From the sequence record OR352958.1: 64,000 bases of DNA; one strand, given 5' to 3'. Position numbers and translations under genes: made by a program. The first letter of the stretch is position 1; every line of letters begins with the position of its first letter. The DNA is from Escherichia phage AV128. Below are positions 1,449 through 63,924 of this stretch, one piece after another. Below the pieces are notes generated by a model. The model did not search any database. It saw nothing but the letters and a program-made list of their open reading frames with translations, and was not told the origin of the DNA.

Positions 1449-3446
1449 ATGCCAAGGCTAATATTCAAAAACAACTTTGAGGTCGCGCTGGCTCAACCAA
1501 CGACGACTTCAGACACCACAATCACAATTCGCTCAGGGTCAGGCTTTCCGACCTTGGGCGCAAACGAGCGTGTAGTGGCGACAATCGTCGACGCTGCAAC
1601 AGGCCTCCAATTTGAAATCGTCACAGTAACAGCCGTGGTTGGAAACGTCCTGACCGTGCAGCGTGCACAGGAAGGTACTGCAGCGCGTGCATGGAGCGTC
1701 GGAGATTTTTTATCCATAAGGGTGACGGCTGCCATATTGACAAGCACAGTAAGGAATTTTGGAGAATTACCTTCTGGAATAAACTTAAATGCCCTTACTG
1801 GTTCTTGGTTCGGTCAATACCAGCAGTCTTCTAATTCTGCGGCTTCGCAAGTTCTGAATTATCCTGTAGCCCAATCAGGCAGCCTTGAGGTTATTTGCTC
1901 GGCAAACAACTCTGGTGACCAATCTTGCACGCAAATATACAGCACGAATCCTGACAACAAGCAGTACAAAAGAACTTATAATTCAGAAACAAGCACATGG
2001 TCTACTTGGGCTAAAATATATAACTCTTCCGACGTGATTCCAGTCTCCAATGGAGGGACTGGTGTTTCAGACACAGGATCAATAAGAAGAGCAATACTGG
2101 TTCAAGGTGTAGTTTGTAACGATCAGACGGGGCCGCAGTCGTATAACAGCTATCGTTCACCCAACAGCACCTACACTTTCAAGGTTGACAACTCAGGCCA
2201 GGTGGCCTCAATCAATACGGGTACTGAAGAGGTTGTCCCGTTCGCCGTAAGCGCTGGCGGTACAGGGGCAACTAACGCTTACGACGCTCGCATCTCATTA
2301 GGTGTGGGAAGATTCAGCGAGCAAACCAACGAGACTAAAGTTCTAGCACCCAACTTTAGCACTTACATTTACGTGAACGACACCGACTGGGGATGCTTCA
2401 GCCCTACCGTTGGCGGTCGTATTGCGTTGAGTGTGGCGAGTGGTGGTACAGGGGCAACTAACGCTGCTCAAGCACGTACTAACCTCGGCATTGGTTCCGC
2501 AGCAACATTCAACACTGTACCGTTAGCTAACGGTGGTACAGGGGCAACCTCCGACGCTGCTGCTCGCGTCAACTTGAAGGTGGATAAGCTCGTTCAAAGT
2601 TCAACTGACACTAAACTTTTAGATGGTTCAGGAGAGCATACTTTCTTTATTACAGATGGGGATTGGGGGTATTTCAATAATTCTGACTCTTCTCGAATTG
2701 CTCTACCGGTAATTAGCGGAGGTACGGGAGGGAAAACCCCAGCAGAAGGTTCTGAAAACTTAGGGGCAATGCACTGTTGGTACGGTTCCTCAGTCTACTA
2801 CGGTGGTGGTGATTTACCAACTGGTATTGGATTCTACAGCGGGGACACGTCACCTTTTCCGGGAGGTAATGGGGCACCCTTCATATATGCGGAGATAATG
2901 ACTATTGCTGAAGGTGGTCGTGGAGGTAACTGGTCCCAAATAGGGTTCTCTACTATCACATATGAAGCCCCTCGCTACAGACAAAGGACTGCTGACCCTG
3001 CTTTAATTACTAACTGGAGAGATTTCTTGATTCGTGATCTCAACACTACAGTTGACAGTAACGGTTTCATTAAAATCGCATCCCCTATCGTGAAAATCAA
3101 AGGTGACGGTGGTGCTGAGTACAACGACGAGTCTGAAGGTTGTACAGTGGAACGCATCTCGAAAGGTGTCTACCGGATTTCAGGCTGCCTCGGCTTAAAC
3201 TCTGACGCATCGTGGGGCGGCACTGACGGCGGCTTCGAGATACCACTCGACCGAAACAAGCAACCTCGTATTTGGCTGGACTATAAAGTGAATGAAGATG
3301 GATCAATTGATATTTTCACGTATCACAGAACGCACAGCAACGCACCAGTATTTGCAAGGAATAACCTTGAAGGTTATGCAGACGGAGACCCAATAGACAT
3401 ACCAAAGGATGCATTTATCTCTGTGAGGGTGCAAATGCCAAAGTAA
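1449..3446 (+). CDS. tail fibre protein with phage tail-fibre repeats
   Basis: Four copies of xGGTGATNAxxARxNLG-type motif typical of the phage tail fibre repeat family; 665 aa. Confidence 0.8.
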   Translation: MPRLIFKNNFEVALAQPTTTSDTTITIRSGSGFPTLGANERVVATIVDAATGLQFEIVTVTAVVGNVLTVQRAQEGTAARAWSVGDFLSIRVTAAILTSTVRNFGELPSGINLNALTGSWFGQYQQSSNSAASQVLNYPVAQSGSLEVICSANNSGDQSCTQIYSTNPDNKQYKRTYNSETSTWSTWAKIYNSSDVIPVSNGGTGVSDTGSIRRAILVQGVVCNDQTGPQSYNSYRSPNSTYTFKVDNSGQVASINTGTEEVVPFAVSAGGTGATNAYDARISLGVGRFSEQTNETKVLAPNFSTYIYVNDTDWGCFSPTVGGRIALSVASGGTGATNAAQARTNLGIGSAATFNTVPLANGGTGATSDAAARVNLKVDKLVQSSTDTKLLDGSGEHTFFITDGDWGYFNNSDSSRIALPVISGGTGGKTPAEGSENLGAMHCWYGSSVYYGGGDLPTGIGFYSGDTSPFPGGNGAPFIYAEIMTIAEGGRGGNWSQIGFSTITYEAPRYRQRTADPALITNWRDFLIRDLNTTVDSNGFIKIASPIVKIKGDGGAEYNDESEGCTVERISKGVYRISGCLGLNSDASWGGTDGGFEIPLDRNKQPRIWLDYKVNEDGSIDIFTYHRTHSNAPVFARNNLEGYADGDPIDIPKDAFISVRVQMPK

Positions 3447-5399: not shown

Positions 5400-5489
5400 T
5401 TCATCAAGTACCAAAACGCACCAAAAGACCCATGCCCTAAAAACCACACGAACGCAATAATCAATCGCCGTTACAGTTTCCAGCGTTAC

Positions 5490-5760
5490 AATTAGAAAGC
5501 GAATGATTCGATGCATAATAATATGAAACATAATGATTCGAAAGCGAATGATTGCGTGTAGGATAATATCGGTGGGGATTATTATATATGTCGGTAATTT
5601 CGCATGCGTACTATTTTCGGGCGAAGGGTCGGCATATTCCTCGTTTTAGTTCGGAACGAAGGGAAAGTTTTGCGCCTTTATAAAACAACGACTTACGCGA
5701 CCCGCCTTAACGGTCCGATATAGGTGTCTATATAAAACAAGGACTTGCGCGATGTTCTCC
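5490..5760 (+). repeat. cluster of short direct repeats in non-coding DNA
   Basis: AAAGCGAATGATT twice, TATAAAACAAsGACTTrCGCGA twice, several CGAAGGG copies. Confidence 0.5.
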
Positions 5761-5916
5761 ATTTAACGTAATACCTGTTATGCGAACTAAGGAGCATCTC
5801 GAAGAAGATTATGCGACGACGAAGGGAAGGATAAAGGAGTTTTCGCGTAGGAGCGCACCGAGATAGGGACGAAGAAAAGCCGCGACTAAGCGCGGCCTAT
5901 TAGTAACGGAAGGGTA

Positions 5917-6207
5917 TTATAAGGAGACGATTTTAAAATAAGTCACTTCGCCGCCGAGTTGCGGTACAGCGATATATTCGCCGCCGATTTCGGTAATCGT
6001 ATAGACGAAGCCGTTAATCGTTACGCGGCAGGATACGATGTCCTCGTCGCGATACTTGTAAAGGTCGAGGAAGTTGATCGGCTCATAAATAGACTCGATA
6101 GTTGCGTCGACGTTAGAGAGATAAACGCTCTCTAAGGTTTCGCCAAATACGTTAGAGTTTTCGGAAGTCTCGACGCGAGCGGAACGGATAGCGGCTAAAG
6201 TAATCAT
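5917..6207 (-). CDS. small protein, paralog family member A
   Basis: AGGAG RBS; shares VY..NVD.TIE and NG...EIG motifs with 6493-6795 and 7020-7304 products. Confidence 0.55.
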   Translation of the reverse strand: MITLAAIRSARVETSENSNVFGETLESVYLSNVDATIESIYEPINFLDLYKYRDEDIVSCRVTINGFVYTITEIGGEYIAVPQLGGEVTYFKIVSL

Positions 6208-6274
6208 AATAATCTCCTAGTTGGTCGGGCGGGTAGCGACCTATTCGCTACCTCATCCCCTCTCGATATAAAAC

Positions 6275-6303
6275 ATTATAGTCTTAGTGTACGAAGAAGT
6301 AAA
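6275..6303 (-). promoter_or_regulatory. sigma70-like promoter (TTTACT-17-TATAAT) for paralog A
   Basis: Hexamers on minus strand; flanking sequence conserved with the other two paralog promoters. Confidence 0.5.
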
Positions 6304-6322
6304 GCACTTTTCGTTATTTTTT

Positions 6323-6475
6323 CTATTTATTTAAAGCGCGTCTCCCAAGTTCGACGACCCAAGCGGCGGCATCTTCCGCCTTATTAAATTCGTATAGATG
6401 CTTCTTATCTTCGAAGACGTAAAATAAAATACGTCCGAACTTATTAGCCTTCGCGCTTAACTCGATAGTTTTCAT
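6323..6475 (-). CDS. small hypothetical protein (50 aa)
   Basis: AAGGAG RBS 6 nt upstream; below ORF-track cutoff. Confidence 0.4.
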   Translation of the reverse strand: MKTIELSAKANKFGRILFYVFEDKKHLYEFNKAEDAAAWVVELGRRALNK

Positions 6476-6492
6476 CTTCTACTCCTTTTTCG

Positions 6493-6795
6493 TTATTTTG
6501 CGATAAAATATTTATAAGCCTTATCGCCTTCTACGTCGATATACTCGACGATAATTAACGCTTCGCCGCGCGGCGTAACCGTCTCGATAAGGGTAACGGC
6601 TTCGTCGTCGGTCTTCGCGAAGCGGATGGCACTACGTTCGGCGTACTTAATATCGTCGAAGGAAAGGCCGACGAAAGCGACCGCGCGGACCTTAATGATG
6701 GTGGATTCTAGTTCCGCGTTAACGGCGGCGATAAGAGAACGAACGGTTAAACGGTCTTCGTCGTAAGTAATGATAGAAGAGATTAAAGTGGTCAT
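6493..6795 (-). CDS. small protein, paralog family member B
   Basis: ATG at 6795 with GGGAG RBS; track ORF extends to 6852. Confidence 0.55.
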   Translation of the reverse strand: MTTLISSIITYDEDRLTVRSLIAAVNAELESTIIKVRAVAFVGLSFDDIKYAERSAIRFAKTDDEAVTLIETVTPRGEALIIVEYIDVEGDKAYKYFIAK

Positions 6796-6851
6796 AATAA
6801 AACTCCCGATGCTAGTAGAAGGAAGGGCCATCGCCCGTCTCGATATAAACA

Positions 6852-6879
6852 AGTATACGCGAGTGTACGAAGAAGTAAA
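6852..6879 (-). promoter_or_regulatory. sigma70-like promoter (TTTACT-16-TATACT) for paralog B
   Basis: Near-copy of the 6275-6303 promoter element. Confidence 0.5.
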
Positions 6880-6923
6880 GAAAAAAGATAAAATAATTTA
6901 TCTCATTTTTATCGAAAAAGTGC

Positions 6924-6951
6924 TTTACTTTTTTCTACACTATATTATAAT
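6924..6951 (+). promoter_or_regulatory. sigma70-like promoter (TTTACT-16-TATAAT) for paralog C
   Basis: GTGCTTTACTT...TATAAT conserved with the two minus-strand copies; divergent from 6852-6879. Confidence 0.5.
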
Positions 6952-7019
6952 GTACTCATATCGGGACGGGATGAGTTAACGAATAGGTCGTTAACGCCTC
7001 TCCCAACTAGGAGTTTAAA

Positions 7020-7304
7020 ATGGCTATTCTTAACGTTTCTTCTATTCGTAACGCTATCGTCGAGAACTACGGCGTAAAACAAATTTTATCCGAAGTCTAC
7101 GCCGCGAACGTAGACCAAACTATCGAGGCGGGTGGGGTAACGGTCGCCGAGGCGTTTAAACTTTACGCGGCGTTACCGGAATCGGACCGCGAAGCCTTCG
7201 AAGTAAACGTTAACGGATATTTCTTCGAAGCGGTCGAAATCGGTAATATCTTACTCGTTATGGGCGAAGAAGAATTTGAGACCTTCTCCCTCGTCGAAGC
7301 GTAA
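7020..7304 (+). CDS. small protein, paralog family member C
   Basis: AGGAG RBS; protein motifs shared with paralogs A and B. Confidence 0.55.
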   Translation: MAILNVSSIRNAIVENYGVKQILSEVYAANVDQTIEAGGVTVAEAFKLYAALPESDREAFEVNVNGYFFEAVEIGNILLVMGEEEFETFSLVEA

Positions 7305-7384
7305 GAGAGGATTTTTAGAGCGTCGTGCGCGGCGCTTTAATAAAATTCTTTCGCGCCTAGCGCCCTAACAAATAGGAGTTTATT

Positions 7385-8011
7385 ATGGTTAGCTTAAATC
7401 GCTTTTCTACTAGCGGCGACGTTATCGCAACTAAGACCGCCGACCTCGTTGCATTCTATAATGCAAATTCCGGCTCAAAACCGATTAAGAAGTTTGCGGA
7501 CCGCCGGACCGCCGAGACTCGCGTAATCGCGTTAATCGAGTCCTTAAACGCGCTCGATGAGCCGTCCAACGAGTCGCCCATCCCTGACGCGAAGCCGCGC
7601 GAGGAAGTGTCCAGCGATGTAAAAACGCATAAGGCGCGTGCGGTCGTTAAAAAGGCCGAGCCGACCCAGGAAGAACTCGATGCGATGAGCGATGAAGAGT
7701 ATGAAGCCTTCGTTAAGAGCGGCTTAAACGATAGTGCAAATTGCGTAGTGCAAAATGGAACTCCTTCCCATCGCCGTTCGAATAGCGAAGGTATTGCAAA
7801 AAGTTGGGATAACAAGGAAGTGGCGCAAAAGCGTCTCACCCGTAACGGCGTTATTGTCGAGGGTGTAGGAGAGTTCAAATCGGTCCGCGTAGCGTTTGCT
7901 GCGCTGGGCTTACCAGATAGCAAGCACATTCGCTTCCGCATGAAGCTTAAAGAAGCTGGACGCTTGAACTTCGAGTTCGGCAACAAGTCCTACACCTTCC
8001 AGATCATCTAA
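7385..8011 (+). CDS. hypothetical protein
   Basis: AGGAG RBS; contains two motif copies (7731, 7746) near its 3' end. Confidence 0.5.
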   Translation: MVSLNRFSTSGDVIATKTADLVAFYNANSGSKPIKKFADRRTAETRVIALIESLNALDEPSNESPIPDAKPREEVSSDVKTHKARAVVKKAEPTQEELDAMSDEEYEAFVKSGLNDSANCVVQNGTPSHRRSNSEGIAKSWDNKEVAQKRLTRNGVIVEGVGEFKSVRVAFAALGLPDSKHIRFRMKLKEAGRLNFEFGNKSYTFQII

Positions 8012-8017
8012 TCGAAT

Positions 8018-8041
8018 GGCGGCCCTTCGGGGTCGCTTTTC
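8018..8041 (+). terminator. Rho-independent terminator
   Basis: Stem gcggccc/gggtcgc with ttcg loop and TTTT tail, 7 nt after stop. Confidence 0.5.
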
Positions 8042-8061
8042 ATAGTGCAAATTGGTGGCTT

Positions 8062-8325
8062 ATGAACACGCTTATTCTCATCGCTACGTTGTCCATCGGA
8101 AGTGGTCGCGCCTTATCCCTTTATGACCATAGTGCAAATTGCGCTTACCCAACGCGCGTTGCGGCGATAGTTAATAGTGCAAATCGAATGCTATTTGAGA
8201 CTTGTTGGCGGGTAGATAACGAGAAAGGGCGCATCGTCTTAGGTTATAGTGCAAATCTGCTGGTGGAGTCGTTCGATTGGACGGCGGAAGGTCGTAAATT
8301 GTTACGTAAAGTGACTAAAAGATGA
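8062..8325 (+). CDS. doubtful ORF inside motif array
   Basis: GGTGG RBS and bracketing terminators, but three SAN tripeptides are translations of the DNA motif. Confidence 0.2.
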   Translation: MNTLILIATLSIGSGRALSLYDHSANCAYPTRVAAIVNSANRMLFETCWRVDNEKGRIVLGYSANLLVESFDWTAEGRKLLRKVTKR

Positions 8326-8384
8326 CTTATAATAATACACTTTCTAACGCGTTTATGGTTGTAGCCTTCCCCGTCGTATTACCG

Positions 8385-8426
8385 ATGGCCCTAGAAGTTG
8401 AGAAAATGTGTTCTAGGGCCATTTTA
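8385..8426 (+). terminator. strong Rho-independent terminator
   Basis: Perfect 12-bp stem atggccctagaa/ttctagggccat, 14-nt loop, T-rich tail. Confidence 0.6.
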
Positions 8427-8439
8427 TAGTGCAAATTGG

Positions 8440-8913
8440 CTAGTGGCGGGAGAATTGCTCACCCTCTTTGGCTGCCTCTCCAAAATCCTTGTAGAAATCG
8501 TCCATGGAACGGCCCATTTTACTATTGCCATTTTCATCAATCATCGTGATGCCGTAGATGATATTCAGTTCACGGATAGCATTAAGCTTGGCTGATGCCG
8601 CGACTTCTGGATCACGCACAAGCTTCACTAAATTGTGGATGGAACTCTTTACGCTCCACAATTCCTTCAATGGCATCTCTTCCATACGCTTTTTGTAGCG
8701 CATCTTGTAGTACGGATTGCGCTGCGTGCAGAGGATTCGCTGGCCAGTGTAGTTATCGGTCGCAACCTCCATGCCAAATACTAGTGCAAAAGCTGCGCGC
8801 ATGTCATGGCCCTGAATAACAAGGTCAATGAACTCATCGAATAAAGCCTGATTGTGCTCTGCAAATCGCGGGTCTTCAAAGTCCTCAGGCATCGCTACAT
8901 AATCTTGACTCAT
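8440..8913 (-). CDS. hypothetical protein (about 157 aa)
   Basis: Long ORF downstream of a strong minus-strand promoter; no Shine-Dalgarno; start 8913 or 8928. Confidence 0.45.
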   Translation of the reverse strand: MSQDYVAMPEDFEDPRFAEHNQALFDEFIDLVIQGHDMRAAFALVFGMEVATDNYTGQRILCTQRNPYYKMRYKKRMEEMPLKELWSVKSSIHNLVKLVRDPEVAASAKLNAIRELNIIYGITMIDENGNSKMGRSMDDFYKDFGEAAKEGEQFSRH

Positions 8914-8948
8914 AGTGCAAAATCCCATAGTGCAAATTAATAGTGTGA

Positions 8949-8977
8949 ATTATACAATGATTGAACATTATATTCAA
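8949..8977 (-). promoter_or_regulatory. sigma70-like promoter (TTGAAT-17-TATAAT)
   Basis: Near-consensus hexamers on minus strand about 35 bp upstream of the 8913 start. Confidence 0.5.
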
Positions 8978-9140
8978 GTGCAGATTGATGTTCAAATTGG
9001 CTGTAAACGTACACAAACCATAGTGCTGAATGAATATCGGACCGTGGTGCGTGGTGTACTGTTTGATACGTATAAAAGAAATCCATCCCTTTCGCCGCTT
9101 GTTATGCAAATCAATGACTTAGCCGCTGCTGGATGGTTGA

Positions 9141-9430
9141 AGCGTATCATGAAGTATCATCCGTATTGCCGCAAGTCTTTGTTTTTACTTATATCTTACG
9201 GATGATACGTATAAATATAAGTTTAGTATAAGTATGAGGATGTAGAAAAAAATTAATTTAAATTAATTCAAAATGGAGTTAATTGTTTTTTTTCAAAGTT
9301 GTATAAAGTATAGCGGCGACGCGTATCATCCGTATCATCCGTAAGATGTACCACTGAACCCAGTCGCGGCGCACCATAGAAGTGTGTGGAGTGAACTACG
9401 GATAGGTCCAAATCTTACGTCATTATACGC
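9141..9430 (+). repeat. iteron-flanked AT-rich element A
   Basis: TACGGATGATACG at 9197; AT-rich core 9241-9300; inverted CGTATCATCCGTATCATCCGTA at 9322; homologous to 61620-61900. Confidence 0.65.
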
Positions 9431-9539
9431 TTAAATTCTATGCGTAAGGTTAGCCAGCTAACTATATCTCCTTTTTAATTTCAAGCGGCAATCCCATAGA
9501 CGGCGCAGCCTACAGGCCCACACACCACGGTACACGCTC

Positions 9540-9738: not shown

Positions 9739-9756
9739 TCTTAACATTAGTCAAAA

Positions 9757-10209
9757 TTAAAATATAAAATTCTTCACTCCTAGCCTTTTAAATTCTTTCC
9801 TTAACATTATATTAAACTTCTTCAATTTAGTTTTATTCATCCTTAGCGGATTGTAGGTGAACACCTTTTCTATTACTTCCTCGCTCATTTTTGAGCGCAT
9901 ATTAGTTGCGTAATAGTTCTTGAACGTATAAATAAGGTAATTTGCTTCAAGCTTAAGTTCAATTACTTCCTCCGATTCATCAAGCTCAAGCAATCCTCTT
10001 TGCGTAAGAATATCTCTTAATATATCCTGACATTTCTTGCAATCACCTTTGCCTAAAAGCGAGTCGATATAATCGCCGCTGACGCGCTCATCACCGAAAT
10101 ATGTTGCGCGACCGCAAAGGCTTTGCACTTCTCCTTCGTCAAAGTAATGCGCACGATGGCCCCACTTCGGTATGGCCCAACCAGCGGCGATAAGCCGTTT
10201 GCCCATCAC
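9757..10209 (-). CDS. hypothetical protein (Cys-containing)
   Basis: ORF in tightly packed co-oriented early block. Confidence 0.4.
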   Translation of the reverse strand: MMGKRLIAAGWAIPKWGHRAHYFDEGEVQSLCGRATYFGDERVSGDYIDSLLGKGDCKKCQDILRDILTQRGLLELDESEEVIELKLEANYLIYTFKNYYATNMRSKMSEEVIEKVFTYNPLRMNKTKLKKFNIMLRKEFKRLGVKNFIF

Positions 10210-13211: not shown

Positions 13212-13510
13212 AGCTCACCCTCTTTAAAAACAAAGCCGCTGATAACAGATTGATAGTAGGTCACGCCGCGCACCTCTACAGCCTTGCACCGATGAGCCTG
13301 ACCCTTGTATTCTATCCACCAGACTTCCATGTCAGGCAAGTTGTTGCGACGCGCCAACCAGCCGTGAAACAGCTTGTGTGTTTCGCCGACCTTAAAAGGT
13401 TTCAGCGTACCGTAAGAATCAACCTTGAATGCGCAGACAACATCTTTGCTGTCTTTGTGTACAGCGTCATGAAATAATCCGCTTCTGCCAAACCTTTCGT
13501 CGTAACTCAT
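13208..13510 (-). CDS. hypothetical protein
   Basis: ATG at 13510 with AGGAG RBS; track ORF extends to 13570. Confidence 0.4.
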   Translation of the reverse strand: MSYDERFGRSGLFHDAVHKDSKDVVCAFKVDSYGTLKPFKVGETHKLFHGWLARRNNLPDMEVWWIEYKGQAHRCKAVEVRGVTYYQSVISGFVFKEGEL

Positions 13511-17331: not shown

Positions 17332-17979
17332 TTATCCTGTGGCCTGCATATTGCGTACATACTTCTGCTCTAATGAATAGATGAAGTCGGCGACAGTCAA
17401 TCCCTTCGTGTGCCATTCATACATGGTGAAGCCTGTATTCAGGAAATAGCCGCGCACCTTGTCCATCGCTTCAGCTTCCTCCATTGAAGCCATCAGCGCG
17501 GCGACGTTGTCATAAGAAGGCACAAATCCCTTCTTGCGTAGCGCATTGCGCAAATCTTTAGTTCTGAAGCCAATCTTGCAAGGGTCATCACGACCAGTGG
17601 ATGATGCAACCTTTGGAAGAGCAAGGAACTCTTTAAGGAACATTGCAATGTTCAAGTCGCCTGCGTCATCAAGCTTCTGGATTCGGTTGCGACCGCGCCC
17701 CTTGAATTCACTCGCACGAGGGTGAGCGCCAAAACAGTGCGCCCCTTCCAGTTTAGGGTCGATGATCATTACATCTTTACCAATGCGAAGCTCTACGTAG
17801 TAAAGATAAGACTCATCGACAAGCTTTGTGCGCTTGCAAGTGATTGAGTCCTTATCATAACCAAAGCCGCGCAACACTGTTGAAATCATCCGGTTCATTT
17901 CTTCGCCGTGAACATCACTCTCTTTGTTCAGTTCACCAAGATGTTGAAAGAATTTAGCGATGTTGATTGCTTTATTCAT
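17332..17979 (-). CDS. hypothetical protein (215 aa)
   Basis: ORF immediately downstream of the helicase gene. Confidence 0.45.
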   Translation of the reverse strand: MNKAINIAKFFQHLGELNKESDVHGEEMNRMISTVLRGFGYDKDSITCKRTKLVDESYLYYVELRIGKDVMIIDPKLEGAHCFGAHPRASEFKGRGRNRIQKLDDAGDLNIAMFLKEFLALPKVASSTGRDDPCKIGFRTKDLRNALRKKGFVPSYDNVAALMASMEEAEAMDKVRGYFLNTGFTMYEWHTKGLTVADFIYSLEQKYVRNMQATG

Positions 17980-19649
17980 CAGAATTCATCCTTATCTCTT
18001 CCCAAAGAACGTTTACGCTCAATAACCTTCTTCAAGAATTCAATATCTTCAGGGTCAGACTCATCGCGGATAAGATACGCTAAGATGGTCATCAAATCAG
18101 AAATGTATTCACCTGCTTCATTCTTAATCAGCGGCGTAAAGTAACCACGCTGGTTGCGATAGGTTGCAGGCTCAAATCCAAGCTTCGACATGTGCGGCGC
18201 AAGGGTACGTGAGAAAGGCGACTTGCCACACTTAGCTCTGAATCCCATAGCGATTGCACCACTGGTAATGTGCCAGCGTCCGCTGTGATGTCGGTCATAA
18301 GGCGCGGTGATGACGACTTCAACAAGGTCGTTGTCGACCATCTCATCACGGATAACGCCGCGAGCACGTTCCATTTCGTTCTTGCTGAACTCAGTAAGCA
18401 TGCGAGACGTTTCACCAACAAAAGCGTTGTAACCTGCTTCGCCGTGTTTCTCCATCCACGCAGCACACTCAGCCATCAACTGCCAAACGTCTTCTTTCAA
18501 AGTGGAAAGGTCAGCTTGGAAGTCTTTAGACCAGTTCGGTTGCCCGTCCTTGTCAGCGAGTTGGCCAACAAAGATAGGGTAAACACGACGGTTGCCCGTA
18601 TCGTCACGCTGCATGCCTGCGTATTCGTTTCCGTCCATGATAGCAATCCACTGGCGTGGTTTAACCTGCGTATCTTCAAATTTGAAGTCCAGGTCATCTT
18701 CCGTCTTAGTCAGGAATGCTTTCATGTTTTCGATGTCAGCCTTTTTAAAGCCTGTCATCTCGCCAACGTTCGCGATAATTGAGCGACCAGTAATAGCTCG
18801 CAAGAACGGGTTGAAGTTCTGCGCGGCCAAGTTCAACGGAATCGGTGTTGCGTGGCGGTCGTTCATAATGGCTTCGCAAAGTAGCTTGCTAAAATAACTC
18901 TTCCCTGCGTTCTGGCCGCCGATGAGCGCAATGGAGATTGGCGCTTGACAGCCAGGGTTGGTCAGGCGGTTATAGAGCGATAGCCAAAAATACACACCGA
19001 TTTGTCGGTTTAACTCTGTATCGAACGGTCGGAATAGCTCGATAAGGTATTTCTCAATGCGCGCAGTACCGTCCCATTCAGGCAGCTTCTTGTAGAAGAA
19101 GTCCATCAGGTCGTCACGCTGATAACGCATGGCCCATTCCTTATAGGACTGAGCTACCTGACGTGAGTTTGGGTTGGACAGTCCTGCTGCGTCGACAGCG
19201 GCAACTATCTCTGTGACTTCCAACGTCCGGTCGGTGAATGTTTCGCCGCGATGGTCGACTAAGCGCCCACGAAAAGTATCTTTGTGAGGGAATGGAACAA
19301 CGCCGCTTCCCTTATCAAACAACGCGTCGAAAACCGCATAACGGTTCATGTCACTCGTCCGGTCCGCCTGAAGAACAAAATCATCTTTCGTCGGTTTGTA
19401 GTGAGGGAACTTGATTACCTGAAGTGAGGCGAGCAAACGTGCTCTTTCAACCAAGTCTTCTTCACCGTAGCATTCCATGCGCTCTGCATCTTTCTCAACA
19501 GCCTTGTGCTGGAGGCTGATTTTAGCTCTGGTGCCTTGCTGCTCTGCCGCTTGCATTTCTTCTGAAACACCAGCGTCTTGAATTTCGTCAAAGATTGCAC
19601 CAAATTCATCACCTGTATCCTCTGGAAGATTGTCATGTTCAATTGACAT
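17979..19649 (-). CDS. replicative helicase with Walker A P-loop (possibly D5/P4-type SF3)
   Basis: IALIGGQNAGKSYF Walker A; 556 aa; SF3 family assignment is a guess. Confidence 0.6.
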   Translation of the reverse strand: MSIEHDNLPEDTGDEFGAIFDEIQDAGVSEEMQAAEQQGTRAKISLQHKAVEKDAERMECYGEEDLVERARLLASLQVIKFPHYKPTKDDFVLQADRTSDMNRYAVFDALFDKGSGVVPFPHKDTFRGRLVDHRGETFTDRTLEVTEIVAAVDAAGLSNPNSRQVAQSYKEWAMRYQRDDLMDFFYKKLPEWDGTARIEKYLIELFRPFDTELNRQIGVYFWLSLYNRLTNPGCQAPISIALIGGQNAGKSYFSKLLCEAIMNDRHATPIPLNLAAQNFNPFLRAITGRSIIANVGEMTGFKKADIENMKAFLTKTEDDLDFKFEDTQVKPRQWIAIMDGNEYAGMQRDDTGNRRVYPIFVGQLADKDGQPNWSKDFQADLSTLKEDVWQLMAECAAWMEKHGEAGYNAFVGETSRMLTEFSKNEMERARGVIRDEMVDNDLVEVVITAPYDRHHSGRWHITSGAIAMGFRAKCGKSPFSRTLAPHMSKLGFEPATYRNQRGYFTPLIKNEAGEYISDLMTILAYLIRDESDPEDIEFLKKVIERKRSLGRDKDEF

Positions 19650-58323: not shown

Positions 58324-59463
58324 TTAGATACCAGTCATACGGACGACTGCGAAAGGACGCTTGAGCAGAACGCCTGCTGTTGCGTTTGCGTAGTCTTCAA
58401 CGTAGCTCTTAGCACGTTTCTCAACGCCCAGAGTCATGAACTTAGTCTGAACCAGCTGGCTGAATACGGAACCATCGTCGCTTGAGCCATCAATTGAGGA
58501 ATCGATGTGATCAGCGTACAGATATGCCACGTTCAGGAAAGTCGGGTCACTGCCAAGTGCGCCGTTGAGTTCCGGTGCAGATTTGATCTTCATCTTCGGA
58601 TAAGTCTGGGTGATCCAGTCACGTACAGAAATACCGAAGTCAGTGGTGTTTGACAGCCAATCAATAGAGTTGGTCGGCAGCGCCAGAGTCATATCAACCT
58701 TCTCTGGATCAATCTGGTCCTGAGAGTTGACACGGATTTGACGAACCATCAAACGGATGTCTGCAGTCACCTGTTGGAAGGTCGCAGTGGCCCAGCCGGA
58801 AGTGGTGTTTGAAGTCATCGCTGCTGGCAGGTTTGGATCATTCAGGAAGCCGAACGTGCGGTTGTTCCCGTTGTACCAGCCATAGAAGCCGATTGCGTTA
58901 CGCATGATTTCCAGAGATACAGCAGCCTGCTGGCGCTTGGTCTCTGCGGAGTTCAGACGCATCGCAGACGCGCGACCTTCTTCCAGCATACCGACTGCCA
59001 TGCCCATTTCACCGCGAACGATGGAACGTCGCTCAAAGTTTACGTTCCAGCTTGCCAGAGGAATAGAGGTGAAATCACCATATTCAACTGCGGTGCCAGC
59101 TGGTTCAACGATGCCCTGAACGATTTCCGCATCTTCCCACTGACCAACGGTGTCAATGCCAACCAGCTCGTCGATTTTACGAGCAGCGGTCATGATTTTG
59201 ACGAAGCCAGGCAGCCACTGTTGCAGGAACTGCAGCGGGGTCGGGATTGATGGCGTGGTCTGCGGCGCAGTAAACGCGGCGTCACCTACGCGGAAAGCGC
59301 CTGCACGGTTTAAGTGCTCAATCTGATCACGCACAATCGCGGAATCAAACACAATACCGATACGAGCAAGCTGGGAAACAGCCGCGTCGGTGACGGATTG
59401 CATATCAAAAGGGCGCACCTTGCTCGCTGGGAGGCGAGAGTGTGTTTGGCTAATGCGAGTCAT
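58324..59463 (-). CDS. putative major capsid protein
   Basis: 379 aa, downstream of scaffold-like gene; by gene order and size. Confidence 0.55.
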
Positions 59464-60097: not shown

Positions 60098-61516
60098 TTA
60101 TTCCCCTTTCAACCAAGCTTCAAATGCTTCGTCAGTTGCTGCAGAATCCGCAGCAGCCTTTTGTTTTGCGACTACACGCTGTTTTTGACCGTGTTCAACG
60201 CCGCGCAGATAATTATCCACCACGTCAAACTCAGCACCATCAACGCACTTCAAGCCTAACTTTTTAGCGCCATATTTCGCTACGGACTTGGAGTCCATAG
60301 TTGCATGATCAAAGGCACCAACAACTTTAGACAGGCGCTGGTAGAGGCTATTCTTACGAGCAGAATCAGCGTAGAAAGCAGCAACTGCTGAATCAGATGC
60401 CATTGAGTGTTCCCCTTTTGCTGGACCTGGCGACGCTTTCGCCGCTTTTGTCGGTTTGTCATCTTTTTCGACCGAAGCCCCCTTTACGTTGCTGTTTTGC
60501 AGGCCGCTAACCACATCTTCAGCTTTGTCGCAAGGTGATACATCTTCAGCCTTGACTTCAACTTCTTCGTCTTTGACTTCGGCTTCAACTTCTTCTTCAT
60601 CACCTACCGCGCCACCTTTCAGTTTTGCAATAAGTGCTTCGATTTGGCTGATCAGTTGCGGAAGCTCGCCGTCAGCGTGAGATTCAGTTTCAACTTCAAA
60701 CTTCTCTTCACCTTCTGGAGTCTCTTCAGCTTCTGCTTTAACTTCTGGATCAACCATCACTTCTTCATGTTCTTCGGTTGAATCCTTCTCTTCTGCTTTC
60801 ACTTCGACTTCGTCCTGATGAGCAGCTTCGGTGCTCTCTTCATTCAGAAATTGTTCGAGCGCAGGGATCAGTGATTTCAGCTGTTCAACAGCATTATCAC
60901 GCGCTTTACCTTTTAACGGTTTTGGCATGTCTAAATCCTCGTTGGATGGTGTTACAGTCGTCAAACAAAGATGGTCAAAGCAACGACCATCCAGCACCCG
61001 TGCACCTGGTACTCGACCAACGTCCACGAGAGCAATGTGGTTGCCGCGAAGAGTTGTCTGTACCACTTCATACGGCTGCCCGTCAAACTCTCCAGACTGT
61101 ATGATGAATTCACAGTCATAGCCCAAAGACAAGTCAACCTTTCCAGAATCGATGGCCTTCTTCAGACGGCGGCTAAAAACTTTGAGGTCGCCGCGCATCC
61201 ATGGCTTGTCATAATAAACATTGCCAGTTAGAACGCCATCAACACCATACTCTTCGGGTGCTGTGTTATCCTCATCACCTTCGAATCCAGAAAGCATTTC
61301 GTGATTGTCGATGAAAGGGATATTTTTGAATGAATCTATCGCTTCGGGGTCTTTCACCGCTGACTCTGGGCGATAAACTTTTACGATGCGATTCGGATCA
61401 CCATCAAGTCCAACCTGACCTGCAGAATAGTCAAAAATGCCAAATGACGAAATGGGACAACCCACAATCGTCAAGAATCCATTTTTGTCAATTTCGCGTG
61501 CCGTTTGCATTCGCAT
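60098..61516 (-). CDS. putative scaffolding/prohead core protein (acidic coiled-coil middle region)
   Basis: Glu/Lys-rich central region; TATAAT about 35 bp upstream. Confidence 0.45.
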   Translation of the reverse strand: MRMQTAREIDKNGFLTIVGCPISSFGIFDYSAGQVGLDGDPNRIVKVYRPESAVKDPEAIDSFKNIPFIDNHEMLSGFEGDEDNTAPEEYGVDGVLTGNVYYDKPWMRGDLKVFSRRLKKAIDSGKVDLSLGYDCEFIIQSGEFDGQPYEVVQTTLRGNHIALVDVGRVPGARVLDGRCFDHLCLTTVTPSNEDLDMPKPLKGKARDNAVEQLKSLIPALEQFLNEESTEAAHQDEVEVKAEEKDSTEEHEEVMVDPEVKAEAEETPEGEEKFEVETESHADGELPQLISQIEALIAKLKGGAVGDEEEVEAEVKDEEVEVKAEDVSPCDKAEDVVSGLQNSNVKGASVEKDDKPTKAAKASPGPAKGEHSMASDSAVAAFYADSARKNSLYQRLSKVVGAFDHATMDSKSVAKYGAKKLGLKCVDGAEFDVVDNYLRGVEHGQKQRVVAKQKAAADSAATDEAFEAWLKGE

Positions 61517-61619
61517 CCACCCTCAAATAAGTATTGTGTATTATATCTAATGAAAAAAACTTAGGCAAACAATAATTATGGTTTGAATATGTATAACAAC
61601 CGATATAGCCGCGCCTTAA

Positions 61620-61900
61620 TTAGTGTGATACGGATGATACGGATAAAATGAGGCGTATTTTTATCCGTATCGGTGTATAAGCCGCGCTATCACTGGTGTG
61701 CTACGGATGATACGGATGATACGGATACTTTTCATATATAAGAGTTTATAAAAAAAATAAAATTAAATTAGATATATAATTTTAAATTAATTTATTTGAA
61801 TTCCTATAAAGTATCGCGGCAACGCGTATCATCCGTATCATCCGTAAGATTCTTTTGAAAACAACTACTTACTTGATACGGATGATACGTCATTATACGC
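61620..61900 (+). repeat. iteron-flanked AT-rich element B (paralog of element A)
   Basis: GATACGGAT tandem units at 61627 and 61702, AT-rich core 61741-61800, inverted CGTATCATCCGTATCATCCGTA at 61825, GATACGGATGATACG at 61875. Confidence 0.65.
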
Positions 61901-61933
61901 GTAAAACCCTGCGGCAATCCATTGCCAGGCGAT

Positions 61934-62071
61934 TCAGTGAATATTAAAAAGCACTCCAGCAACTAAAACGCCAATCAGCATCGAGTCGTAAACAGCCCAT
62001 TTCCAAGAAAGCAAAGAGTTGCAATTAATATTTCGCACTTTAACGTAACGTGACTGAATAATCTTTTGCAT
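61934..62071 (-). CDS. small membrane peptide (45 aa, C-terminal hydrophobic segment)
   Basis: AAAGAGGAAG RBS 4 nt upstream; below track cutoff. Confidence 0.3.
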   Translation of the reverse strand: MQKIIQSRYVKVRNINCNSLLSWKWAVYDSMLIGVLVAGVLFNIH

Positions 62072-62081
62072 AACTTCCTCT

Positions 62082-63002
62082 TTAGTTCAACTTAATTGCG
62101 GTGATCTGTCCGTAAACGGTAGATGTCAATGCGTCTGTGCATTGATAGTTTAGATACACATTGCCAGGCGCGGCAAGAGTAATTATCTTTGTTGGAATAT
62201 TGCCGCCGAAACGACCTGCAGCCCGAATGCCAGCAGACATCGTGAATGCATCATCCGTAATATCTGAATTACTTGTTGACAATTTTACTGTAATTCCGGT
62301 ATTCGCTTGAACTCCTTCTGTTGCGACAGTCAACTGACTTGCTGTCACAAGCCATTTCCCTGCAGGCAGGTTTAATGTTGCCAGATTCACCAGAGTTGTC
62401 GGAGGATTGCTTACACTATTGCTTGTGTTTTGCACATTGCTTGCAGCAGCGTTAAGAACTCCAGAACCATCAATTGATAGTGTCGTTCCTACTTTTACGC
62501 CACCCAAGGTTGATGCTGATGCAATCGGTAATGAGTATTGAGTAACACTAATTGTACCGTCACCTGCAACACTTATGCCACTTCCTATCTTGACGCCGCC
62601 GAGAACAGAAGCCGTTGCCGCTGGTAACGTGTATTGGTTGCCGCTGGATTTGACTACCTTAACGGCGACAGCATTCTTGGACCCTCCAGACTCCATGCCT
62701 ATAATCACTGCTTCTCCAAAAGCGATGGTGATTGTAGATGCAGTTAAACCAGTCTGCACGTCTGTTATGTCCATTTTGGGAACTGAAAGTGTCAGATTCG
62801 GCTTGCTGGTAGAATCGCCATCATTACCGATCATAAAGAATTGGCCGACTGAATTGTATCCAGATGCCAATGGCGGACTCAATGGAACAATCAAATTTTT
62901 ATCGGATGTAAATTCTGAAACAATCGCCAAGCCGTTAGCATATACAGCAGGCAATACTGGCGTCTGTCCAGATAGAGGAAACGTGCTGATTGGTATCGTC
63001 AT
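62082..63002 (-). CDS. repeat-containing structural protein (fibre-like)
   Basis: Repeated ASxLGGVKxG...DGxxxV blocks; ATG 63002 with GAGGT RBS; track start is GTG. Confidence 0.45.
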   Translation of the reverse strand: MTIPISTFPLSGQTPVLPAVYANGLAIVSEFTSDKNLIVPLSPPLASGYNSVGQFFMIGNDGDSTSKPNLTLSVPKMDITDVQTGLTASTITIAFGEAVIIGMESGGSKNAVAVKVVKSSGNQYTLPAATASVLGGVKIGSGISVAGDGTISVTQYSLPIASASTLGGVKVGTTLSIDGSGVLNAAASNVQNTSNSVSNPPTTLVNLATLNLPAGKWLVTASQLTVATEGVQANTGITVKLSTSNSDITDDAFTMSAGIRAAGRFGGNIPTKIITLAAPGNVYLNYQCTDALTSTVYGQITAIKLN

Positions 63003-63009
63003 AATGACC

Positions 63010-63924
63010 TCAAATGATTGGTATTTTTCTGCACTTGCAGTGTATCGCCCATCCAGGAGGACCGATGTCACCCTTTTTGAACTTCAACTCTCCGCCCACT
63101 TCCCATAGACGCTTGTCATCAAGTTTGAATCTCATTCCGTCGACATGTTCATGAGAGATTCGCGGCTCCTTTCCTGCTCCTGAGTGCGCCCATTCAAATT
63201 CTTCAACTCCATTCTGGCGCATCCTTTCATCGCTTAGAACGCAATACAATTTGCTTGTCTGGTCTTTAGCGATTAAGTCGACTCTCTTTGCAGAGAAGTG
63301 TTTTACGTTTCGCAGCGCCGCCTGAATGCCTGACGTGCCTTGCTGGGCTGGGTCGGGCGAAGTCAGCGAAAGCATTACTGCTTCGTACACTCTGTTGTGA
63401 ATGTCCTCGCCAACCTTAGTCACTAGAGTCGTGTTAAACGTCTCGCTTGTTCTAAGAGTGTTCTCAACGAATTTGTTATATGTGGCCTTTGGCGCTTCTA
63501 TGCCTGCGGACTTAAGGCTTGCGAATGTAGCAGAAGTGGCACCCTTTTCGACCGATTTGATAAAATCAGCGGCAATCTTCGACCCAACACGTGCAAACGC
63601 CCTTGCCCATTTCAGCTGCAGACGTTTCATAAGAGTCTGGAATGTTGAATCAGCAGAGTCTTGCGCAAAGAACTTCTGCACCTGCTTCTTTTCAAGCCAC
63701 TCTGAAATTCCTGCCTGATAGTCATCAATCATCGCATAGCAAAGACCTTTCATCTCACGACGGTAGGCCATCGCAATAGCGTTTGATGGGATTATCGGAC
63801 TGCCGCGCCCGATTCTATCGGGTGAGCGGCGTTCACGTTTTTTCGAAGCTTTAAAAGCCATATCAACCTTGCTTCGGTGAATTAGTAGGATTATTGAGTG
63901 CTCCGTATGCTTGAGAGCAATCAC
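63010..63924 (-). CDS. Mu F-like minor head (head morphogenesis) protein
   Basis: C-terminal PPGWAIHCKCRKIP matches HxxCRC signature of Mu-F/SPP1 gp7-like proteins; GTG start. Confidence 0.65.
   Translation of the reverse strand: MIALKHTEHSIILLIHRSKVDMAFKASKKRERRSPDRIGRGSPIIPSNAIAMAYRREMKGLCYAMIDDYQAGISEWLEKKQVQKFFAQDSADSTFQTLMKRLQLKWARAFARVGSKIAADFIKSVEKGATSATFASLKSAGIEAPKATYNKFVENTLRTSETFNTTLVTKVGEDIHNRVYEAVMLSLTSPDPAQQGTSGIQAALRNVKHFSAKRVDLIAKDQTSKLYCVLSDERMRQNGVEEFEWAHSGAGKEPRISHEHVDGMRFKLDDKRLWEVGGELKFKKGDIGPPGWAIHCKCRKIPII

Follow-up and report, generated by a model that had tools for sequence, protein, structure and literature searches.

Element B is a non-coding segment of about 300 bases in the genome of a Wifcevirus coliphage, Escherichia phage AV128, of which we analyzed a window of 64,000 nucleotides (sequence record OR352958.1). 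It lies among head genes that are all encoded on the minus strand. On its upstream side are a head-fibre-like gene (62082–63071, minus strand; Pfam PF11133) and, as the last gene before the element, an ORF of 45 amino acids with a hydrophobic C-terminus (61934–62071, minus strand). This small ORF has no family match, and small ORFs are present at the equivalent place in the phages Kyle and PB1. The first gene downstream of Element B (60098–61516, minus strand) encodes a head maturation protease/scaffold protein of 472 amino acids with a DUF2213 domain. An earlier note on this DNA had described a repeat-rich segment that separates a structural gene from a scaffold-like gene and interrupts an otherwise tightly packed late block, and both parts of that description are borne out: the flanking genes are of these kinds, and the gap of 417 bp is the largest, the next being 115 bp. 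There are no tRNA genes in the window.

The same note had pointed to a TATAAT about 35 bp upstream of the scaffold start, suggesting a regulated internal late promoter with activator or repressor sites. We find this hexamer at 61545–61540, 29 nt before the first ATG of the gene and 35 nt before the second. Together with an upstream TTGCCT and a spacer of 17 nt it makes up a predicted sigma-70-type promoter for the protease-scaffold/capsid operon (61540–61568, minus strand; 10 of 12 matches, predicted start at ~61533). The two hexamers are unchanged in six Wifcevirus sequences, and matching -35/-10 pairs occur in the same place in Pseudomonas phage PB1, Pantoea phage Kyle and a Serratia relative. 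In phage 14-1 the PB1-type version has been mapped experimentally as start site P014 (TSS 13257), and its transcript spans the protease gene gp22. The invariance of the promoter, the equivalent hexamers and the orthology with P014 make a predicted internal promoter at the downstream edge of Element B well founded. What did not hold is the placing of regulator sites on it: the closest iteron (61627) lies 59 bp upstream of the -35 hexamer, and none overlaps the protease promoter.

The upstream edge of the element is marked by two lesser features. A distal candidate promoter consists of a perfect TATAAT without a recognizable -35 element (GCGTATAATGACGTA; 61892–61897, minus strand), and the 20-mer that contains it is also found in Element A, a paralogue discussed below (9417–9435). 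We regard this TATAAT as a weak feature because no orthologous start has been mapped in 14-1, where the start-site table lists none inside the orthologous B-type element and the mapped start P014 lies downstream of the whole B-type module. Directly 3' of the stop codon of the 45-amino-acid ORF is a hairpin, CCTGGCAA-tgga-TTGCCgcAGG, followed by GTTTTA (61908–61929, minus strand). Its GGCAA/TTGCC stem is retained in WFC and Bas99 despite differing neighbouring bases, and a terminator scan left the hairpin uncalled; it is a weak candidate for a terminator-like boundary of the upstream operon.

The repeats themselves, previously put at about ten units, comprise nine TACGGAT cores and two degenerate copies between 61627 and 61892, or approximately eleven units in all, so that the former count was fair. 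The full iteron, GATACGGAT, is present in seven exact copies and one with a single mismatch (61627–61883), and the degenerate copies are GATACGTCA (61884–61892) and GATACGCGT (61822–61830, minus strand). When up to one mismatch is allowed, GATACGGAT has 20 matches in the whole window against 10.6 expected. Clustering is evident from the TACGGAT core, of which there are 18 copies in 64 kb: nine in Element B, five in Element A and four elsewhere. Nine cores within 300 bp compare with a maximum of two in 300 first-order Markov simulations.

The units are arranged in tandem arrays with a period of 9 bp, oriented face to face across an AT-rich core of 88 bp that contains A/T tracts (61727–61814; 10.2% GC, compared with 46% for the window). 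Just four stretches in 64 kb have a GC content of 20% or less over 80 bp, and the cores of Elements A and B are two of them. The left-hand array (61700–61726, plus strand) and the right-hand array (61822–61848, minus strand) each contain three tandem 9-bp units directed at the core, and between them they form a perfect inverted repeat of 22 nt (61702–61723 and 61825–61846) that encloses 101 nt. The right-hand array is preceded by a block, TATAAAGTAT-CGCGGC-AACGCG, common to Element A; the 46-nt block is 95.7% identical to positions 9302–9347 there. Closer to the protease promoter lie a pair of iterons (61627–61644, plus strand) and one inverted unit (61663–61671), which include a 13-nt inverted repeat, GATACGGATAAAA and TTTTATCCGTATC, with a 10-nt spacer (61636–61671). 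At the other end a pair of units, GATACGGAT GATACGTCA (61875–61892, plus strand), adjoins the distal TATAAT.

Inverted repeats inside a co-directional operon raise the possibility that Element B acts as RNA, as a long structured 5' leader or non-coding RNA in which the inverted iteron arrays form long hairpins that govern how the head-gene mRNA is processed, how stable it is or how it is translated. The predicted fold of the minus-strand RNA would agree with this (-119.5 kcal/mol, z = -7.3 relative to shuffled sequence). However, the signal is a trivial result of the inverted repeats, since the DNA folds equally well (z = -8.3), and we discarded the fold as evidence on that ground. An RNA role would also leave the tandem 9-bp direct repeats and the 10% GC core unexplained, no Rfam covariance model matched at its gathering score anywhere in the window, the start mapped in 14-1 is downstream of the entire module, and a genome end splits the sister copy. 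We therefore consider a role at the RNA level very improbable.

The sister copy, Element A (9041–9531), is the single paralogue of Element B in the window. It has an AT-rich core at 9213–9311 (17% GC) and iterons at 9142–9167 (minus strand), 9197–9212 (plus strand), 9322–9346 (minus strand) and 9397–9405 (plus strand), and it extends from 213 bp to 603 bp upstream of the gene for the small terminase, TerS (8440–8928, minus strand). The identity of TerS follows from a profile match to PDB 7UXE, the small terminase of phage E217 (E=1.1e-45), and from the annotation in the Mansfield record. This sequence match made a fold search unnecessary; AlphaFold models of TerS reached a pLDDT of 45 from a single sequence (poor) and 65 from six sequences (moderate). 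Two overlapping sigma-70-type promoters are predicted ahead of terS (8995–8949). According to published data, the genomes of WFH, WFC and Mansfield end within the AT-rich centre of Element A, which places the mature left end at 9273/9274 (TTAACTCC^ATTTT, minus strand), 345 bp upstream of the TerS gene. Wifcevirus DNA ends at exact positions, with a direct terminal repeat (DTR) of 3.7 kb, and does not form a headful series.

Several sequences are specific to Element A: an outer inverted repeat, ACCGTGGTGYGTGG (9041–9054 and 9518–9531), a 22-mer, CCCAGTCGCGGCGCACCATAGA (9359–9380), and a C-rich tract, all of which are missing from Element B. Element A also has a site matching the IHF consensus (9109–9121), and no such site occurs in Element B. 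The 22-mer is unique to Element A in the window and identical in Serratia phage MyoSmar. We rejected it as a universal terminase signal because WFC lacks it and is cut at the identical position, and it is thus not essential. The distance from Element B to terS is ~52 kb along the window and ~16 kb round the genome, and no record or paper places a genome end or pac cut within it. Only one contig, L016, ends in Element B; its last base coincides with the 46-nt repeat common to A, which makes this end an assembly artefact and not a physical one. The end of the Hera record was likewise set aside; it falls inside an upstream ORF and is therefore arbitrary.

Kylevirus, Myosmarvirus and Pbunavirus have the two-copy design as well: one copy lies where packaging starts and the other precedes the head protease gene. 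The proteins of the four genera that share this layout are only 35–57% identical. Each lineage has its own iteron sequence, which the two elements of a genome have in common and which is rare outside them. Counts in the B-type element, the A-type element and the rest are 9, 5 and 4 for TACGGAT in the window, 6, 7 and 7 for GGTTATT in Kyle, and 4, 2 and 3 for GGTAATT in PB1. In Kyle, PA1, PB1 and Hera/MTx-like phages the protease gene is preceded by a B-type element with iterons of its own. With regard to the A-type elements, the left genome end lies between the iteron arrays in WFH, WFC, Mansfield, Kyle and MyoSmar, as does the putative pac site of JG024. In JG024 this position is at the edge of the AT centre, and in Wifcevirus, Kylevirus and Myosmarvirus it is inside; in the DTR genera it is 345–390 bp upstream of terS. 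A terS promoter mapped in 14-1, P040, has the spacer between its -35 and -10 hexamers filled by the two right-hand A-type iterons, GGTAATTTGGTAATTTGG.

The module is absent from more distant relatives, namely L020, whose protease is 51% identical, and Carpasina, where the gap before terS is 225 bp. Within our Wifcevirus comparison Element B is nearly invariant, as are the downstream head genes, so that no extra constraint on the element can be claimed and we dropped the idea that it is conserved more strongly than coding sequence. A comparison of Kyle with PA1 as a natural swap of specificity was also abandoned, being uninformative because the two have a common core, GGTTAT. We found no description of the element pair in the literature searched.

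One could suppose that Element B is a duplicate of the packaging region without function, or a relic of it left by recombination, given the 46-nt block that is 96% identical between A and B and a mosaic boundary at ~61900. We regard this as the least credible of the explanations considered here. The two copies are kept at the same two positions across the four genera, at the degree of protein divergence noted above, and the fact that both carry each genus's own iteron requires selection on both copies. The paralogous pair, the packaging cut and the four genera with their own repeats point to a DNA-processing assembly site, of the origin or packaging type, more than to a simple operator.

Purely transcriptional control, an extension of the idea in the earlier note, is in our estimation unlikely. 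The iterons would in that case serve as operators or enhancer-like sites, bound by a phage regulator dedicated to them that times the terS promoter at Element A and the protease/scaffold/capsid promoter at Element B, with the AT-rich core serving as a bendable spacer or UP-like region and looping taking place between the facing arrays. Strong sigma-70-type promoters are indeed predicted at the gene-proximal edge of both elements, where early firing would be expected without control, and orthologous start sites (P014, P040 and P041) have been mapped in 14-1. Moreover, iterons overlap P040 in 14-1 and the -10-only candidate at 61897–61892 in the window, and the 13-nt inverted repeat has the look of a classical operator. 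However, the iterons are confined to the two loci and absent from other late promoters, and at Element B the protease promoter itself is free of them. This explanation does not account for the terminase cut in the AT core of the sister copy in several genera, nor for the match to a helicase-loading origin layout described below. In addition, no candidate regulator was found, the small DTR and early proteins having no family matches. Promoters stand beside the unwinding element in the origins of T7 and T4 as well; unlike these, the B-type orthologue in 14-1 has no mapped start that reads into the AT core.

The reading we favour, to which we assign a probability of about 0.38, is that the core of Element B is an origin-type loading site for a superfamily 3 (SF3) helicase resembling SaPI Rep1, and that Element B occupies the place of SPP1 oriR. 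The candidate iteron-binding initiator is a VapE-like SF3 helicase of 556 amino acids (17979–19649, minus strand; Pfam PF05272, 1.6e-28). A profile of this protein matches PDB 7PDS, the complex of SaPI1 Rep1 with DNA (E=6.4e-18), the homology being in the ATPase core. In alignments this core is conserved between genera and the C-terminal ~130 amino acids diverge, as the iterons do. Profile searches of PDB and Pfam with the C-terminal region returned no significant match; for one member there was a Forkhead match at E=0.07, which is not significant.

Element B has two parts. At the downstream edge, sequence and orthology with a mapped start show a sigma-70-type promoter (61568–61540) that restarts transcription for the protease-scaffold and capsid genes, after the weak hairpin boundary at 61908–61929. 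The bulk of the element, from 61627 to 61892, is one of two copies of a lineage-specific module. We propose that the VapE-like helicase recognizes the iterons via its divergent C-terminal region; it would be loaded to the left and right of the AT-rich core, which it would then melt. Element B could thereby be an internal origin, or a site of fork control like SPP1 oriR. Element A combines the same core with its own outer sequences and is where terminase makes the packaging cut, beside terS; we propose that Element B stays uncut because it is without the A-specific outer sequences. The anatomy, the paralogy, the conservation across genera, the genome end in Element A and the protein homologies are shown; the identity of the iteron-binding protein, the melting of the core, the initiation of replication and hence the function of the module are what we infer in this scheme.

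The layout of Element B is that of known helicase-loading origins. SaPI origins are defined by short iterons, two or more to each side, that point in opposite directions about an AT-rich centre (PMC9371898), and Element B has three opposed units on either side of its own AT centre. To this likeness is added the homology of the phage SF3 helicase with the Rep1 ATPase core. In PB1, JG024 and MyoSmar the A-type copy is immediately downstream of the helicase gene, as the SaPI origin is after rep. No such adjacency exists in the window, where the helicase gene is 8 kb from Element A and 42 kb from Element B and adjoins neither copy. Further differences are that the iterons are 8–9 bp in the phages and 5–6 bp in SaPI, that the phage has two copies per genome, one of which contains the packaging cut, and that a SaPI-type winged helix is only putative in the phage helicase.

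A precedent for the second copy is provided by SPP1, which has two distant origins with repeats and an AT-rich unwinding element, both bound by the initiator gp38 (PMC6316719). One of these, oriR, is a non-coding segment that interrupts the virion-assembly genes, and stalling of the fork there has been proposed to bring about the switch to concatemers (PMC6316719). The phage resembles SPP1 in having two distant similar sites, one of which interrupts assembly genes upstream of scaffold and capsid. It differs in that its repeats are inverted arrays around an AT core, and in that gp38 is unrelated to the VapE-like helicase and works with a separate loader, gp39, and the DnaB-family helicase gp40. 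Neither SPP1 origin, furthermore, coincides with pac. In P4 two iteron clusters, ori and crr, are both bound by the SF3 primase-helicase, though crr is an enhancer made of direct repeats rather than a second ori. GC skew was discarded as evidence for an origin since in the window it tracks only transcription and gene orientation and is uninformative; a paper on Pbunavirus places the skew minima elsewhere, in replication genes.

The cut inside the A-type centre and the overlap with P040 count against the origin reading, since a site for TerS recognition and autoregulation, like SPP1 pac, would account for them no less well. The iterons would then be recognition repeats for TerS. At Element A they would flank the TerL cut and overlap the terS promoter, leading to autoregulation as at SPP1 pac, and Element B would bind a TerS ring and remain uncut because the outer A-specific sequences are missing. 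Its role might be that of a synapsis partner for Element A (as in the twin-ring gating model of T4), a sink for TerS, or a means of coupling head genes to the level of terminase. We view this as possible, if rather doubtful.

In its favour, the gene adjoining Element A is that of TerS, the genome end or putative pac site lies between A-type iteron arrays, 345–390 bp from that gene in the DTR genera, and the 14-1 iterons occupy the spacer of P040. The putative recognition helix of TerS also differs between relatives. At the P1 pac site hexamer repeats lie on both sides of the cut, and short repeats flank the terminase cut of Element A as they do there and at SPP1 pac (pacL-pacC-pacR). In SPP1 the sites for TerS, which flank the cut, overlap the terS promoters, and TerS represses its own synthesis (PMC6316719); Element A likewise adjoins terS and overlaps terS promoters. 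For two separated homologous sites there is the T4 model, in which two TerS rings on such sites are joined before packaging starts (PMC9611059).

Other observations fit TerS recognition less well. Element B is neither in nor next to terS, and the repeats on both sides of its centre are only putative binding sites for TerS. SPP1 and P1 each have a single site, whereas here there is a second copy at a distance of 16 kb that is just as rich and has no known or published terminus, and a conserved second TerS site at this distance from pac has no well-established precedent. The T4 sequences are within genes, with ~3 kb between them, and the model may hold for T4 alone (PMC9611059). The Wifcevirus centre is extremely AT-rich and its genome ends are exact, unlike SPP1 and P1, and a core so poor in GC (10% over 88 bp) is more what one expects of an unwinding element than of the centre of a pac site. 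The E217 TerS had no appreciable DNA binding in vitro, although it was possibly never offered these sequences. Finally, the iterons of Element B do not overlap the protease promoter.

The origin and terminase readings could also be combined, which we consider more unlikely again than transcriptional control. The same iteron-bound, melted core might act as an origin at both elements and, where outer repeats flank it, as the site of terminase entry and cutting; or TerS rings at A and B might synapse and so license the first cut. Were the module of dual use, packaging initiation would be physically coupled to the origin complex in the Pbunavirus/Wifcevirus/Kylevirus/Myosmarvirus lineage. Either the dual-use or the synapsis version would explain both the undefined pac site and origin and the lack of DNA binding by isolated TerS. 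If the origin reading is true, a lytic phage would possess a SaPI-type self-loading helicase origin together with an SPP1-like second site in its head module; if the terminase reading is true, it would possess a rare conserved second terminase site.

These distinctions bear on phages of practical interest, as few Pseudomonas phages are used in therapy more than the Pbunaviruses, and Wifceviruses have been reported to be unusually fast-replicating coliphages. The replication origin and the packaging signal are both undefined for the lineage, and reports on genome ends conflict. The E217 small terminase, although its structure is solved, came without a DNA substrate to which it bound. The paired elements, ~300 bp each with lineage-specific repeats of 8–9 bp, supply concrete candidate sequences for TerS and the Rep1-like helicase. 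They are also landmarks for opening and assembling genomes and for designing synthetic or rebooted phages: as repeats they break assemblies, and in engineered genomes they must stay intact.

Two further motifs were considered. GCCGC/GCGGC boxes were rejected as a protein site since they are over-represented genome-wide (178 and 125 copies against ~62 expected) and not specific to the elements. A phage-specific promoter was rejected as well. Phage 14-1 has a class of non-sigma-70 promoters with a CTGGG core, of which P011 and P032 sit elsewhere (8970 and 50518) and none in the B-type element; in PB1, CTGGGAA is present at the upstream edge of both elements.

Every gene around Element B, the non-coding iteron module upstream of the head protease gene, is carried on the minus strand. 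The order runs from portal through head-morphogenesis protein, head-fibre-like protein (62082-63071; Pfam PF11133) and a 45-aa ORF (61934-62071), the last gene before a 417-bp gap, to a DUF2213 head-maturation protease/scaffold gene (60098-61516), followed by genes for a structural protein and then the major capsid protein; all remaining gaps in the late block are 115 bp or shorter. For the final 4 kb of the window, 28 Wifcevirus genomes match at 93-99% identity; these are myoviruses of E. coli and Shigella, among them ECO71P1, FEC19, WFH and ECML-117. Wifcevirus lineages show a mosaic boundary at about 61900: relative to Bas99, identity is 96-100% to its left (Element B and head genes) and 81-93% to its right (45-aa ORF, head-fibre and head-morphogenesis genes).

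The cluster of about ten repeat units that the earlier note described within the head module is real: between 61627 and 61883 there are seven exact copies of GATACGGAT and one copy with a single mismatch. Of the 18 copies of the iteron core TACGGAT in the window, nine are in Element B, five in its paralogue Element A and four elsewhere; nine cores lie within a span of 300 bp, whereas 300 Markov simulations never gave more than two. Units are arranged in tandem with a period of 9 bp: two units at 61627-61644 (+), one at 61663-61671 (-), three at 61700-61726 (+), three at 61822-61848 (-) and two at 61875-61892 (+). Both triple arrays together make a perfect 22-nt inverted repeat, and between them lies an 88-bp AT-rich core (61727-61814, 10.2% GC). 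GC content falls to 20% or below across 80 bp at only four places in the window: the cores of Element A and Element B, and two stretches that lack iterons, 6869-6962 (within the terminal repeat, separating divergent genes) and 9753-9837 (at the 3' end of gene 9757-10209). A lone exact TACGGATGA unit lies within the head-fibre-like gene (62251-62259, -), ~350 bp upstream of Element B. Genome-wide, GCCGC (n = 178) and GCGGC (n = 125) exceed a uniform expectation of ~62 by a factor of two to three.

The same note had flagged a TATAAT and suggested a regulated internal late promoter. This hexamer belongs to TTGCCT-17-TATAAT (61568-61540, -; 10/12 matches), which is identical in six Wifcevirus sequences representing both subgroups, and equivalent -35/-10 pairs lie ~30 bp ahead of the protease start codon in PB1, Kyle and one Serratia relative. 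In Pbunavirus 14-1, ONT-cappable-seq mapped start site P014 at position 13257, with a transcript spanning protease gene gp22 (bioRxiv 10.1101/2023.10.13.562163 supplement), and the promoter of P014 is the PB1-type sequence at the protease gene. Conservation of the sequence and the mapped orthologous start make the predicted internal head-gene promoter well founded. The proposal that the repeats are its operators did not hold, since even the nearest unit is 59 bp away from the -35 hexamer, on its upstream side; the 14-1 start-site table lists no start within the repeat module orthologous to Element B (bioRxiv 10.1101/2023.10.13.562163). That the elements are operator or enhancer regions would account for the promoters but leaves the packaging cut and the iteron layout unexplained, and we consider it improbable.

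The sole paralogue of Element B in the window is Element A (9041-9531), upstream of the small terminase (TerS) gene. Plus-strand iterons, an AT-rich core and a minus-strand TATAAT-containing 20-mer are common to both, as is a 46-nt block, 96% identical, consisting of TATAAAGTAT-GCGGC-ACGCG plus inverted iterons. Three published genome records, those of WFH, WFC and Mansfield, begin within this core in Element A and share one start, TTAACTCC^ATTTT, equivalent to window 9273/9274. For Mansfield, PhageTerm supplied the boundary at which the record is opened, and the direct terminal repeat measures 3,673 bp (PMC6753283). The opposite boundary, at about window 5427 (…caccaaa/agacccatgccc), has neither iterons nor an obvious repeat. 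By homology to these three phages, 5427-9273 is a ~3.7-3.8-kb direct terminal repeat of virion DNA, holding terS along with several small genes, encoded on both strands. The terS gene (8440-8928) lies 345 bp downstream of the cut; a profile built on its product matches the Pbunavirus E217 TerS decamer (PDB 7UXE, E = 1.1e-45), and the Mansfield record annotates the same gene as TerS. Several features occur in Element A and not in B: an IHF-consensus site, C-rich/G-rich tracts, the 22-mer CCCAGTCGCGGCGCACCATAGA (9359-9380, its one occurrence in the window), and an outer 14-nt inverted repeat, ACCGTGGTGYGTGG, whose just two copies in the window (9041-9054, +, and 9518-9531, -; 464 bp apart) bracket all of Element A.

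Similar G-rich/C-rich tracts flank the A-type elements of PB1, Kyle and MyoSmar. The 22-mer is identical in Serratia phage MyoSmar (3634-3655; inverted 3350-3372), although coliphage and MyoSmar proteins are only about 35-53% identical; WFC lacks it, yet has the same cut site. At that cut WFC has strongly diverged from WFH on the non-repeat side, whereas the repeat side is conserved.

The two-copy arrangement extends to other genera. A gap before the protease gene is found in four further relatives, Pantoea phages Kyle (515 bp) and PA1, Pseudomonas phage PB1 (551 bp) and the Serratia Hera/MTx-like phages (about 470 bp), and each contains short tandem repeats in inverted arrays about an AT-rich centre. 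The repeat itself is lineage-specific: TACGGATGA in Wifcevirus, units built on core GGTTAT in PA1 and Kyle, GGTAATTT in PB1 and CGAAAAGTA in the Serratia phages. In each lineage these repeats recur in an A-type copy beside terS, and they are rare elsewhere in the same genome. This copy occupies 58780-59200 in PB1; the Kyle record starts in its AT-rich centre, 356 bp before terS, with 3,603-bp repeated ends as recorded; and in MyoSmar a PhageTerm repeat boundary falls inside it, about 390 bp before terS. A pac site proposed for JG024 at 59,376, for which there is support from a pac fragment in gels (PMC10913387), coincides with the edge of the A-type AT-rich centre, where the fHoPae01 record begins; in four other Pbunavirus records the offset of terS from the record start matches fHoPae01. 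The module is absent from the more distant relatives examined, Carpasina and a phage with a 51% identical protease (L020). An element acting at the RNA level is unlikely, as is a relic of duplication.

We favour an origin-type site as the shared core of Elements A and B, with a probability of about 0.38. What has been shown is limited to the anatomy and paralogy of the elements, their conservation, where the genome end falls, the orthologous start sites mapped in 14-1 and the protein homologies; binding, melting and replication are inferred. The candidate iteron binder is a 556-aa VapE-like SF3 helicase (17979-19649, -) that matches SaPI1 Rep1 in a profile search (PDB 7PDS, E = 6.4e-18). SaPI Reps are self-loading initiator-helicases whose C-terminal winged helix reads short iterons, and the SaPI origin, just downstream of rep, has at least two iterons per side of an AT-rich region in opposite directions (PMC9371898), the layout seen in Element B. 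Between genera the helicase core is conserved and the C-terminal ~130 aa are divergent, with no significant match in PDB or Pfam profile searches. The A-type copy immediately follows the helicase gene in PB1, JG024 and MyoSmar, but not in the window. A separate RepB-type primase (PF16793; 20960-22042, -) lies about 1.3 kb from the helicase gene, resembling the split pri/rep arrangement of SaPIs. Precedent for two copies comes from SPP1, in which oriL and oriR have common repeats and an unwinding element and are bound by one initiator; oriR, in a non-coding segment breaking up virion-assembly genes, is thought to stall forks and set off concatemer synthesis (PMC6316719). On the origin-type reading, helicase hexamers would load on the facing arrays of Element B and open its AT-rich core, which would make it an internal origin or fork-control site with the head-gene promoter immediately after; in Element A this core would be joined to terminase-specific flanks.

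Element A must be recognised by TerS, and the shared iterons could themselves be TerS sites. In 14-1, right-hand A-type iterons occupy the -35/-10 spacer of the terS promoter P040, a mapped start site, resembling SPP1, whose pac site overlaps promoters of terS, with TerS bound to either side of the cut and repressing its own production (PMC6316719). Such sites explain Element A better than an origin does, but Element B worse; a conserved second TerS site has no well-established precedent, and E217 TerS showed no appreciable DNA binding in vitro (PMC9611059). We regard this explanation as somewhat less probable than an origin.

The components are of known kinds (iteron origin, pac region, sigma-70 promoter); what is unusual is the conserved pairing of the elements, with the packaging cut within one copy. 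We found no description of the paired elements in the searchable literature, covering the BASEL Wifcevirus section, the Korf paper, the Pbunavirus transcriptome paper, a terminase review and recent Pbunavirus genome papers, one of which took origins from GC skew only and called termini reports contradictory.

A 68.5-kb metagenomic contig (IMGVR_UViG_3300045988_152943) stops exactly where the 46-nt A/B block ends; because this repeat breaks assemblies, record starts in this phage family need careful reading. WFH_00001 (202-834 of the WFH record, 633 nt) extends terS toward Element A, where WFC and Mansfield annotate 474 nt, and the JG024 gp77 ORF (406-987) spans the non-coding A-type element including its AT-rich core; both are probably ORF over-calls.
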